A stretch of 64,000 bases of DNA from Nitrospirota bacterium (GTDB lineage: Bacteria > Nitrospirota > Thermodesulfovibrionia > Thermodesulfovibrionales > Dissulfurispiraceae): NCBI GenBank assembly GCA_963710375.1, contig CAVPZX010000002.1:640001-704000 (forward strand), read 5' to 3'. Shown one piece after another: positions 19,748 to 27,497 of this stretch (positions within the stretch are counted from its first letter, which is position 1; every line of letters begins with the position of its first letter). The notes below the pieces were generated by a model. It was not told the DNA's origin. It ran no database searches and saw only the letters and a list, made by a program, of their open reading frames with translations. The position numbers and the translations under genes were made by a program.

Positions 19748-22437
19748 ATGTCTATAAGAAATCTTGAATCTTTTTTCAATCCCAAAAGGATTGCAGTTAT
19801 CGGAGCGAGCGATGACCCCGCTTCTACAGGATACCTTGTTCTCAGGAACATGATCGGCAAAGGATTCAAGGGAGTAGTATATCCCGTGAATCCTTCGCTG
19901 GAGGCGGTGCAGGGGATACAAGCATACAAATCAATCGGCGAAATCACCGAGCCGGTCGATCTGGCGGTTACGACCGTCGGTATTGACGATATCCTTCCCA
20001 CTCTTGAGGAGTGCGGCAAAAAGCGAGTCAAGGGCGTAGCCATAATATCTCCCGACTTTGAGAGCAAGGTCAAAGACCTGCAGCTTTTGGAATCTCAGAT
20101 CAGGCATCTTTCGTTTAAATATGACTTCAGGGTCCTCGGGCCTAACACGCTGGGATTTATCAGGCCGGGTATAAATTTAAATATGAGCCTCTTTCCCAAA
20201 ATGCCTAAGAAAGGCAACATCGCGTTTATTTCCCAGAGCGCTACACTTGCCACCGCACTCCTGGACAGGGCGGTGAGCAAGAATGTAGGCTTCAGCTATA
20301 TTGTTTCGCTTGGAACGAAGCTCGACCTCGGGTTTTCCGACCTGATCGATTTTTTTGGCGTTGACCCCGGGACGAGTGCCATTGTTCTTTACCTCGAACA
20401 TATCCAGCGGGGACGTACATTCATGACCTCTGTCAGGAGCTTTGCGCGCACCAAACCTATAGTTGTCGTCAAGTCAGGCAGATTCGATATATCGGCACAG
20501 GTGGCACATACACATTCAGGGTTTCCTGCCGGCGATGACAAGGTGTACGATGCGGCAATCAAGAGAGCGGGAGCAGTGCGCATATATGAAACTCTTGATC
20601 TCTTCTATATAGTAGAGACGCTTGCCAAACAGCTCCGCCCGAACGGGAAGCGGTTAGCCATCATTTCAAATGCATGGGCCCCGTCCGTTCTTGCAGTAGA
20701 TGCATTGTTGCGCCTTGATGGTGAGCTGCCCATACTCAGTGAAGAGACCACCGGAAGCCTGAAGCAGGAAGTACCTTCAGTAACACAGCCACAGAACCCT
20801 GTCAGCCTCTATACCGATGCCCCACCTAAAGACTACCTGACAGCAATTAAGCATTGCATGAAAGACCCGAACGTTGATGGTGTGCTGGTATTGCATTCAC
20901 CGTATTTCGGCACTGCCCCGACCGAGACAGCATGGGCAGTCGCGGCAGCATTGCAGGGGAATCCCTTTGTTCCCCTCTTTACCGTCTGGATGGGTGATGA
21001 ACAGGTGCTGTCCGCCCGGGAGTATTTAAACGCAAAGGGTATACCTACCTTTGTCACCCCTGAGCAGGCGGTGAGAAGTTTTATTTATATGTACAGCTAT
21101 GATTATAATCTGCAGCTTCTGCAGGAAACACCCGAGGCGATTCTAAAGGACTTCGCCCCTGATACAGGCAGGACGCTCGAAATCTTCAGAAAGGCATCAG
21201 AGGAAAAAAGATACATTCTGGAACTGAATGAAATAAAAGAGATCCTGCAGGCTTACGGTATTCCACTCATCACAACCAGAAAGACCCTGAGCGAAGAGGA
21301 GGCGATGCAAACAGCCGAAAATATCGGATACCCTGTCGTACTAAAGATAGATTCGGAGAAGATTGTTCATAAGCTGGAGAAGGGAGGGGTAATCCTTAAC
21401 CTTAAAGACAGGTCTTCCGTGCAACTTGCCTTCAGGCAGATCAGGAAACTGGCCGCTGACATCGGGGACCCGGAAGCGCATGTCATAGTCCAGCCGATGA
21501 TCCTAAGACAGAGCTTTGAACTGGCATTCGGCGCCAGGAAAGACCCCACCTTTGGAGCAGTAATCGTTTTCGGTACAGGCGGAGAACTTCTTGAAGCAGT
21601 CGGAGATTATGCGGTAGGTCTTCCCCCGCTCAATCAGATGCTCGCAAGGCGCATGATGGAGGAAACCAGGATTTTCAAATATATGCAGACTCAGGAAGTA
21701 TATAAGGATATGCTGCGATTACTCGAAGAAACACTTGTACGGTTTTCTCATCTTATAGTAGATTTCCCCTGCATAAAAGAGGTGAACATTAACCCCTTCG
21801 TCGTCACCGGCAAAGAGGGGCTGGTCCGGGATGCTGCCATGCTGATCGAAAAAGACCAAATGCAGGAATGTGAACAGATGAAAGACGATATTTGTCCTCC
21901 CCACCTTTCTATCTGCCCCTATCCTTTTAAATACGTCAGAGAGGTCGTGCTCAAAGACGGAAAAGCAGCGGGCATCAGGCCGATCCGGCCCGAAGATGAA
22001 CCGCTCATCTATGACTCTTTAAGTCGCTTTCCGATGACACCATTATGTTCAGATTCTGCCAGCGTCTGACCGATATACCGCATGAACGGCTTGTGCGCTA
22101 TTGTCAGATCGATTATGACAGGGAACTGGCCTTTGTCGCAGTAATCAGGGAAACTCCGGACCGTGAAAAGATCATTGCCGACATTAGAATCATAAAAATG
22201 CCTGACCTTGAAACCGCTGAACTTGCAATTCTTGTGGCCGATGGGTGGCAGGGGCACGGCATCGGCACCATGCTTATGGACTATTGCATCGAGGTTGCCG
22301 CTCAATCAGGAATAAAGCTCATCTGGATGGAGATATTGAAAACAAACTCGAAGATGCTGCATCTTTCTCAGGCAAGCGGGTTTAAGCTTTCCTATGATGA
22401 TGAAGATATGATAAGAGTTACACGCGAGATTAGCTGA
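19748..22437 (+). CDS. Acyl-CoA synthetase (NDP-forming)/GNAT fusion, Pat-like lysine acetyltransferase; 1-nt deletion near 22015
   Basis: CoA-binding, ligase and ATP-grasp domains (19748..22069) and GNAT (22045..22437); restoring GAGCTC gives IRPEDEPLIYELFKSLSDDTIMFRF. Confidence 0.88.
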
Positions 22438-25237: not shown

Positions 25238-25879
25238 ATGCTGAAAAGACAGATTGCTGTCGGCGACATACACGGCTGTTTTGATTTGCTCAAAACGCTG
25301 GTCGAAAAAATCATAAGGTTCACGCCTGATGAGGACATGCTCATATTTACCGGCGATTATATAGACAGGGGAAAAAAGTCCAAAGAGGTAGTCCAGTATT
25401 TAAGCGAACTGAAAGAAAAATTCCCCGATAACGTCGTACTCCTCAAAGGGAATCATGAGGACCTTGCCTATAATGCGCTGACAGATCCTGACCCGGAAAA
25501 AGAAATGCTTTTTTGGCGTTTAAACGGAGGCACTGCTACTGTAATCAGCTTCAGCGGCATAAGGAATTCTAGAGAATGCCTCATCCCATTTATCGAATCA
25601 CTGCAGCTTTATTATGAAACCGATACGCACATCTTTGTACACGGGGGCATCCCTCGCGGCAAAGACCTGAGCACCGCCACTCCCGAAGATCTGCTCTGGG
25701 ACAGAGAATTCTCTTATGATGGAGAGAAAACTCTCGTTGTAGGGCACACCCCAAAGAGCATAGTCACCAATTTCAACAGCGGCAAAATAATCTGCGTCGA
25801 TACCGGGGCATATATGACCGGTATCCTGTCTGCCTATGATGTGATTAATAATAAGGTGTATAAAACAACAGGGGAATAG
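25238..25879 (+). CDS. Metallophosphoesterase (PPP/ApaH-like Ser/Thr phosphatase)
   Basis: GDIHG, GDYIDRG, GNHE, GHTP, DTGA motifs. Confidence 0.95.
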   Translation: MLKRQIAVGDIHGCFDLLKTLVEKIIRFTPDEDMLIFTGDYIDRGKKSKEVVQYLSELKEKFPDNVVLLKGNHEDLAYNALTDPDPEKEMLFWRLNGGTATVISFSGIRNSRECLIPFIESLQLYYETDTHIFVHGGIPRGKDLSTATPEDLLWDREFSYDGEKTLVVGHTPKSIVTNFNSGKIICVDTGAYMTGILSAYDVINNKVYKTTGE

Positions 25880-25894
25880 GAAGGTCAGGGTTCG

Positions 25895-26563
25895 CTATTT
25901 CCGGACAACCTGTCCTGTCGGCTCCCATGTGAGGGCCTTTACCGGAGGTGGAGGACGAAAACTCTCTACCAGGTCCCCTATCCTCGCACTGCTGAAATGC
26001 TTTATTCTTATGCCGGCCAGCTGTCCCTGCACAACCTTCTTTACCGCTGTATCTCCTACATGGAGCGACTCTATAGTGCCTTCGAAAACAGGCCCCATGG
26101 CAGAGATAACGCGGAAGCGTTCGCCAATAGAAAAAACGCCTTCCATAACTTCGCATCCAATGATGATACCCTTCCTGCTGCTTTTGAAAAGGGCTATTAT
26201 TTTGCCGGAGCCAATTACCTGCTCCTCTGGAAAATGGGGGACCAGGGCCCCGGCAATAGCCTTGATGTCATCGATGAGATTGTAAATCACATCATAAAGG
26301 CGCACCTCCACCCTTTGCTCCCTTAACAACTTATCCAGGAACGGCATAACGCCGGTCTGAAAACCAATGATGAGCCTGCTTGCAGTCTCGGCAAAAAGAA
26401 CATCGGATTTGCTGATGGCCCCGATGCCGCTGTGGATAACGCTGATATCGACATCGGTCACGGTCAGTGCTGCAAGGCTATTGGTGACAGCCTCCACGCT
26501 TCCGGCTGTATCGCATTTAAGGACTATTTCGAGCTTTGTCTTTTTACTTTGCGGTGGAACCAT
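25895..26563 (-). CDS. Stand-alone IF2 C-terminal (C1+C2) domain protein
   Basis: LEIVLKCDTAGSVEA, IGAISKSDV, VIYNLIDDIK, IGCEVMEG resemble IF2 C-terminal domains; no GTPase domain; start moved from 26632 (inside a MITE) to ATG 26563. Confidence 0.82.
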   Translation of the reverse strand: MVPPQSKKTKLEIVLKCDTAGSVEAVTNSLAALTVTDVDISVIHSGIGAISKSDVLFAETASRLIIGFQTGVMPFLDKLLREQRVEVRLYDVIYNLIDDIKAIAGALVPHFPEEQVIGSGKIIALFKSSRKGIIIGCEVMEGVFSIGERFRVISAMGPVFEGTIESLHVGDTAVKKVVQGQLAGIRIKHFSSARIGDLVESFRPPPPVKALTWEPTGQVVRK

Positions 26564-26569
26564 ATTCAA

Positions 26570-26598
26570 ATCATAGGGCACCAGCCAAGTGCTGTCAA
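26570..26598 (-). promoter_or_regulatory. sigma70 promoter, leaderless arrangement
   Basis: TTGACA-17 bp-TATGAT, 6 nt before ATG 26563. Confidence 0.78.
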
Positions 26599-26604
26599 TT
26601 CCAT

Positions 26605-26786
26605 AGGGCTCGCGAATAAATAACTTGTGCATTCAGGCGCTCAGATTTAGGTCAGATTTGGCTGATCCGACTGAGCAAAACCGCAGGCGTAGCATCGCTA
26701 CGTTGAGGATTTTGCGACTGAGGATCGGGCAAAGCTGGCCTGAAGCTTAGATGCATCAATGTGCAAGTTATTTATTAGCGAGCCCT
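26605..26786. mobile_element. MITE-like palindromic element B (182 bp)
   Basis: TIRs agggctcgcgaataaataacttgtgcatt / aatgtgcaagttatttattagcgagccct; central cgtagc-atc-gctacg hairpin. Confidence 0.75.
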
Positions 26787-26834
26787 TAACCTTTACATTT
26801 GCTCTTTTTTTCATGTATTCTTAAAAACCATACC

Positions 26835-27497
26835 ATGATAGACCTGCATACTCACAGCATATTCAGTGACGGCGAGCTTATTCCAGCTGAACTCATCCGG
26901 CGGGCTGTCGCAAAGGGCTACAGCGCCCTGGCCATTACAGACCACGTTGACCAGTCAAATATTGATTTTATTGTACCCCGGATAGTAAAGGTAATCGAAA
27001 GCATGCGTCAACACCTCCCTATTCCGGTGCTCGCAGGCGCTGAAATAACGCATGTGCCGCCGGCGTTAATACCCGGCATAATAAAAGAGGCCCGGTTGCT
27101 GGGAGCACAAATAATAGTTGTCCACGGGGAGACCATAGTCGAGCCGGTGGCGGAAGGCACGAACAGGGCAGCCATTGAGGGAGGAGCAGATATTCTCGCA
27201 CATCCGGGCATTATCTCTCATGAAGACCTGCTGCTTGCTGCAGATGCCGGAATAACCCTTGAGATAACAGTAAGGAAAGGACATAGTCTATCAAACGGAT
27301 ATGTAGCGAGGCATGCGATGGAAACCGGTGTCCAGTTAACCATAGATACCGATGCCCATTCGCCTTCTGACCTCATTACAAAGGATTTTGCCGAACGTGT
27401 TCTGCTGGCTGCAGGGATTGAAAAAAGAGCAGTTGAGCATATATTTCACCATGCCCGCACGCTTGTTGAAAAGGCGCTTGACCGGGGGCAATCATAG
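26835..27497 (+). CDS. PHP domain protein (histidinol-phosphatase-like)
   Basis: DLHTHS, ITDH, AHPG, DTDAH motifs. Confidence 0.92.
   Translation: MIDLHTHSIFSDGELIPAELIRRAVAKGYSALAITDHVDQSNIDFIVPRIVKVIESMRQHLPIPVLAGAEITHVPPALIPGIIKEARLLGAQIIVVHGETIVEPVAEGTNRAAIEGGADILAHPGIISHEDLLLAADAGITLEITVRKGHSLSNGYVARHAMETGVQLTIDTDAHSPSDLITKDFAERVLLAAGIEKRAVEHIFHHARTLVEKALDRGQS

Follow-up and report, generated by a model that had tools for sequence, protein, structure and literature searches.

Can the two C-terminal domains of bacterial initiation factor IF2 persist as a protein of their own, and what might such a protein do? The question is raised by a short gene within a 64,000-nucleotide stretch of a Nitrospirota genome (Dissulfurispiraceae; GenBank assembly GCA_963710375.1, contig CAVPZX010000002.1, positions 640,001 to 704,000), referred to here as the window. 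An earlier sequence-only reading had proposed that this gene encodes a GTPase-less IF2 paralogue of altered ligand specificity, translated from an apparently leaderless mRNA, with a degraded infB duplicate as the competing possibility.

The gene, its neighbours and its start

The gene (25895..26563, reverse strand) is defined by its open reading frame, Pfam and TIGR profiles, homologues and dN/dS. The frame, 26563-25895, has 222 codons and no internal stop, as first read. The sole Pfam match of the 222-residue product is PF11987 (IF-2), at residues 6-101, and the IF2 profile TIGR00487 covers it only through profile positions 384-578 of 587, with 156 bits against a cut-off of 424. Both the GTP_EFTU G domain and domain II are absent from the chain by these profiles: it carries only the C-terminal IF2 domains, C1 and C2, followed by a family-specific W-x-P-x-G tail. 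The segment reported to have changed from SLKRFKDD...ECG to SLHVGDTA...LAG has indeed done so, the genome's own IF2 reading SLKRFKED...DCG.

The flanking genes, a convergent metallophosphoesterase gene and a divergent PHP gene, are not nusA or rbfA and place the ORF outside any nusA-infB-rbfA context, in agreement with the first reading. The full infB expected elsewhere is present (G000:C4:254154-256544, 797 aa), followed by an rbfA-like ORF, and its product is 38.6% identical to the 222-residue protein over 197 residues. No nusA-sized ORF lies directly upstream of infB in the region G000:C4:252060-257023, where the order appears to be a clpX-like ORF, a reverse-strand ORF, infB and the rbfA-like ORF. 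A split IF2, with two genes making up one factor, was rejected for this genome: its IF2 is intact, and the seven further translational GTPases it encodes are all full length. Elsewhere in the window, a 773-aa ORF, which we take to be acyl-CoA synthetase-like, is overlapped at its end by a 130-aa ORF in another frame, presumably acetyltransferase-like (19748-22437); the two may be one frameshifted gene.

A longer, 245-aa reading from the ATG at 26632 was also rejected, since that start sits inside a 190-bp palindromic repeat (26605..26787, no strand assigned). The repeat resembles MITE or REP elements, has 26 near-full copies genome-wide at 85% identity or more, and folds into a hairpin of -100 kcal/mol (z -11.2). 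It is missing from the equivalent place in loci L082-L084 and is regarded as an upstream insertion, not part of the gene. Rfam gave no match at E<=1 over 25500-27000, the repeat included.

Immediately ahead of the 222-codon frame lies a sigma-70-type promoter, TTGACA-17-TATGAT (26570..26598, reverse strand), which matches the consensus at 11 of 12 positions and is the best of nine sites in 2.5 kb, where 3.3 are expected. It ends 6 nt before the ATG, as originally noted, and is real and conserved, recurring in close homologues. With the ATG at +7 and no Shine-Dalgarno sequence (duplex -2.8 kcal/mol), the gene is predicted to give a leaderless mRNA. The special meaning attached to this start found no support in a survey of 94 family loci, 87 of them with enough upstream DNA. 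A strong promoter (at least 10/12) was found in 20 of the 87, and in only seven of these 20 does the ATG lie 6 nt downstream; close relatives have the same promoter but AGG in place of the ATG, and start 15-112 nt later. Within the genome itself, 37 of 3727 long ORFs have a strong promoter 5-8 nt before their ATG, against 11.6 expected (p ~2e-9); judging from their N-termini, they appear to include argS, tpiA, dnaE, hisD, glgC and lexA. Because so few homologues share the layout and so many ORFs of the genome have it, the leaderless start, although credible, is not a trait of the whole family and is ordinary for this organism; it lends no support to feedback through the level of IF2.

A conserved family with a patchy distribution

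The protein belongs to a family of its own kind. In a homologue search, the 120 best of 944 matches were proteins of 174-321 aa, 56-94% identical to the query, so that same-length homologues do exist in other genomes; the named ones come from Dissulfurispiraceae and Thermodesulfovibrionales, and database labels read hypothetical or IF-2. In a full HMMER scan no full-length IF2 appears before rank 22, where the first one scores 177 bits; the short proteins ranked above it reach 306. We examined 94 family loci, 14 from genomes and 80 metagenomic. The stretch from the VLKCD motif to the stop measures 207-216 codons in 91 of them, and in 91 an in-frame stop closes the reading frame no more than 155 codons ahead of the first conserved motif, the remaining three running off the contig. 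Since a G domain and domain II would need about 300 codons upstream, these 91 loci encode stand-alone C1-C2 proteins. When genome contigs were scanned with a pattern from the single protein, the 80 loci listed were all ordinary IF2 (34-39% identity). Phage records gave 22 matches, the best 10 of which show 30-36% identity, the level of ordinary infB.

In a FastTree phylogeny of 64 family and 103 IF2 sequences (196 columns), all 64 family members fall into one clade with support 1.0 and a stem of 0.65. This clade is not nested in the IF2 of the host lineage, and its sister group is left unsettled by the tree. The family is under purifying selection, with dN/dS of 0.11-0.36 (median 0.20) over the 211 of 4095 pairs whose dS lies between 0.1 and 1.2. 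Absence of the G domain, monophyly and selection together bear out the proposed GTPase-less paralogue, and the neutral decay that would mark an infB duplicate falling apart is not seen. One genus member does carry a copy with two frameshifts (L090, G005:C10:30972-31620), either a pseudogene or an assembly error, and it speaks for a decaying fragment or artefact. Against the selection, the fixed length and closed ends, the fully supported monophyly outside the host's IF2 and the conserved promoter, that explanation is scarcely credible for the gene studied here.

The family is patchy in Nitrospirota and Desulfobacterota. The gene is carried by 8 of 10 genomes of the genus, by 13 of 61 relatives (own genome included; one copy frameshifted and one cut by a contig end) and by 3 of 301 genomes across the phylum; atlas clusters and one named match extend the family to Desulfobacterota. 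A full infB is visible in 11 of the 13 carriers, the other two being 81% and 88% complete. Genomes are larger among the 13 carriers, with a median of 3.3 Mb, than among the 48 non-carriers, where it is 2.3 Mb, a comparison among kin that are not independent.

Neighbouring genes recur only within clades and are otherwise scattered and metabolic, and among the 73 of 119 flanking ORFs scanned there was no family-wide translation gene. A conserved operon was accordingly rejected, the neighbours being clade-specific. Five loci (L115, L117, L123, L133 and L156) have an RNA helicase gene as their immediate upstream neighbour in the same orientation; three of these helicases are of the HrpB type and two of the DEAD-box type, a weak hint of an RNA-metabolism context. 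In the group L158-L189, a small Rho_N-domain protein is encoded upstream in 10 loci of one clade (for example L162:529-843), and two unannotated conserved ORFs lie downstream in nine.

Conserved fold, new tail and altered pocket

The AlphaFold model of the protein (pLDDT 89.6, pTM 0.59) recovers C1, helix H12 and the C2 barrel as in IF2, and its best structural matches are all IF2 or mitochondrial IF2 (mtIF2). The orientation of C1 relative to C2 in the model is uncertain. C1 (domain III) together with helix H12 occupies residues 10-109 (26237..26536, reverse strand), as delimited by PF11987 and structural alignment, and its model superposes on IF2 domain III with 1.7-1.9 A rmsd over 102-104 residues. 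It keeps K16/D18/G21/E24, G48, D54, F68 and Y94. In Pseudomonas aeruginosa IF2, V676, G677 and Y723 stack on the sarcin-ricin loop and H43 in the compact state (PMC9192638, in excerpt); their equivalents are retained as V/I47 in 90%, G48 in 100% and Y94 in 99% of the family, and those of the compact-state contacts R700, R742 and D784 are lost.

The family-specific tail, residues 213-222 (25898..25927, reverse strand; W213, P215, G217), is delimited by conservation and pLDDT. Of 333 family proteins, 319 have a W-x-[PA] tail, which neither of two sets of full-length IF2 shows (0/99 and 0/90). That the tail folds back onto C1 is predicted from its pLDDT, which drops from 92 with C1 to 69 without, where its strand vanishes, the two models using different alignments (66 and 64 rows). 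Neither model, full-length or C1-less, has a helix after the barrel. Covariation in 333 sequences (effective 144), a noisy signal, links the tail to C1 through S51-Q218 (z 5.6) and E214-R84, and to C2 through G217-A124 and P215-I187, and was for that reason not counted as proof.

Both surfaces by which C1 faces the G domain are conserved although the G domain is gone (K16, D18, G21, E24, D54, A58 and Y94, 94-100%), which raises the possibility that the paralogue is an exchangeable module: it would dock in trans on the G domain of the IF2 made by the same cell, replace or displace the C1-C2 of that factor, and thereby inhibit it or retarget it to another tRNA. A predicted complex with residues 294-585 of that IF2 scores 0.36, against 0.02 for the best of three controls; at least 94% of contacts recur between runs and the pLDDT of the partner is 81. 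The support is weak: 116 of the 157 solved pairs and 2 of the 215 mismatched ones reach the mark for such predictions, but only 18 solved pairs and both mismatches do so at 0.60 or below. Resemblance to solved full-length IF2 would, moreover, be expected to give a pass, and the IF2 used had its own C1-C2 removed, whereas in the cell the tethered C1 would compete. The C-terminus of mtIF2 sits beside the catalytic His (PMC7287080, in excerpt), an analogy for the tail that favours docking; E52 replaced by K (76%) on one face, and a genome in which no G domain is orphaned and all seven other translational GTPase matches are full length, tell against it. On this evidence docking on the G domain is improbable. 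More so, and very improbable, is its elaboration into a swappable specificity module, in which the docked protein, its tail clamping C2 to C1 as in mtIF2, would redirect initiation to a non-formylated or alternative tRNA; if true, it would give the carrier anaerobes a second initiation route.

Of the columns that are at least 85% conserved in IF2, the family has lost 11. Along with the long stem branch, the scattered metabolic neighbours and the patchy distribution, these losses would suit a fold repurposed outside translation, where it might bind another RNA, some metabolite or a partner protein. At 35 columns, however, a residue at least 90% conserved in the family is that of IF2, many of them at the tRNA pocket and at rRNA contacts, and we regard repurposing as doubtful.

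The C2 (domain IV) beta-barrel, residues 113-203 (25955..26227, reverse strand; model and alignment counts), has a basic beta1-beta2 loop and a family-specific SAMGP hairpin. The loop, which cradles A76, carries K127, R130 and K131 in 97, 96 and 89% of the family; the median net charge of C2 is +4 in the family and 0 in IF2 (+2 against -1 for the protein and IF2 of this genome), and the median whole-protein pI is 9.2. The fMet-A76 pocket was compared in sets that dereplication had reduced from 241 to 127 family members and from 136 to 120 IF2 sequences, using as reference numbering the 12 pocket residues of Escherichia coli IF2 listed in PMC4783127. By that list five of the 12 are kept: F804 (98%), I812 (100%), C815 (98%), S844 (98%) and G862 (98%), the last a position at which larger residues block ligand binding in IF2. 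Elsewhere H stands in place of R846 (94%), I in place of R847 (89%) and K in place of F809 (89%), while F848 becomes G or E, E860 becomes Q or K, C861 becomes V or A, and K849 is variable; several of the replacements (H, I and K) are thus themselves fixed. Of the five Geobacillus stearothermophilus pocket residues, two are kept and three lost. In alignment, then, the floor of the pocket is kept and the wall that cradles fMet is rebuilt, and the suspected change of pocket takes concrete form in new conserved residues at Arg847/Phe848 and Glu860/Cys861. In all, 21 positions are at least 90% conserved in the family in a residue found in under half of IF2.

Could the protein nonetheless still bind fMet-tRNA and tune initiation by feedback through its leaderless mRNA? 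The strong promoter with its ATG at +7, the IF2 dependence of leaderless translation (PMC4611024, in excerpt) and the five retained pocket residues would fit. The family-wide loss of R847, F848, E860 and C861, the three lost G. stearothermophilus positions, and a leaderless layout confined to seven of 20 strong-promoter homologues and common genome-wide make this distinctly improbable.

Proposed role and known relatives

The reading that we tentatively favour, at somewhat less than even likelihood, is a GTP-independent factor that docks at the ribosomal site of IF2 and holds a tRNA end other than that of fMet-tRNA. The protein would be an ancient partial duplicate of IF2, made of C1, C2 and a new tail and acting as an accessory translation factor without GTP. 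C1 would dock it in the place of IF2 on the ribosome, and the rebuilt C2 pocket would grip a tRNA 3′ end, not that of formyl-Met-tRNA but perhaps that of an unformylated or uncharged tRNA. Since it has no GTPase to eject it, the protein might act in slow-growing anaerobes as an initiation brake or placeholder. In IF2, R847G weakens fMet-tRNA binding and rescues a GTPase-dead factor (PMC8709274, in excerpt); loss of the Arg847 contact may be what spares the fMet-tRNA pool from a C1-C2 fragment. A missing formylation pathway was rejected as the driver: fmt and def are both present in the genome, so no formylation gap explains the need for a paralogue.

Several points weigh against a ribosomal site. 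IF2 contacts the 30S subunit through domains I-III (PMC4783127, in excerpt), and two of these three anchoring domains are missing from the paralogue; the conserved residues may serve folding; and the gene is absent from 48 of 61 relatives and from 298 of 301 genomes of the phylum. The missing anchors would equally suit a protein that binds tRNA ends off the ribosome. It would use C1 and the tail as a scaffold and protect or store a single class of tRNA, whether uncharged, unformylated or one particular aminoacyl-tRNA. Isolated C2 binds the end of fMet-tRNA by itself, without the ribosome (PMC4611024, in excerpt), and here the pocket floor is kept and C2 is more basic. Such a free binder is nevertheless unlikely, in that conservation is as strong in C1 as in C2 and extends to surface residues which in IF2 touch rRNA or the G domain, and both domains occur in every full-length member (207-216 codons, 91 of 94 loci).

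We found no published description of the C1-C2 family in the literature, subscription papers and supplements such as the gene tables of PMC4342817 aside. No duplicate of bacterial IF2 is reported in the accessible parts of two surveys (PMC1780047; PMC4342817), nor is the family mentioned in those of a 2026 preprint on IF2 extensions (10.64898/2026.02.08.704698). The family drops both the GTPase and the grip on fMet, and as a natural, stable C1-C2 variant it offers a test of what fixes formyl-Met specificity. Sulfur-cycle anaerobes may have in it a new translation factor, a candidate of moderate value until its ligand is shown.

Three known systems provide the closest comparisons. With bacterial IF2 (InfB, TIGR00487) the paralogue shares two folds in the same order, the pocket floor, several rRNA contacts and 21-43% identity (median 33%). 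It differs in having no N, G2 or G3 domain, in the replaced fMet-cradling residues and more basic C2, and in the new SAMGP hairpin and W-x-P-x-G tail. IF2 is universal, single-copy and encoded beside rbfA, whereas the paralogue is patchy, non-essential in distribution and located outside the infB operon.

Mammalian mtIF2, whose C-terminal tail has Trp-x-Pro, is aligned by phmmer to query residue 215, beyond any bacterial IF2. It is, in contrast, a full GTPase and is only 24-27% identical; because this is below the identity to bacterial IF2, the likeness of the tails is probably convergent. The C-terminus of mtIF2 is anchored while domain IV moves (PMC7287080, in excerpt), and the same is predicted for the tail of the paralogue.

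Finally, domain IV of archaeal and eukaryotic IF5B and domain II of EF-Tu are homologous barrels that hold non-formylated aminoacyl-tRNA ends (PMC4236685; PMC9226500, both in excerpt). Some family members match PF14578 or PF03144, but structural alignments give only 18-28% identity to IF5B domain IV and 10-16% to EF-Tu domain II, and those barrels are always attached to a GTPase. The a/eIF5B profile TIGR00491 scores 34 bits against 156 for TIGR00487, and the helices that follow domain IV in a/eIF5B are absent. The 222-residue protein descends from IF2 without itself being an IF2.
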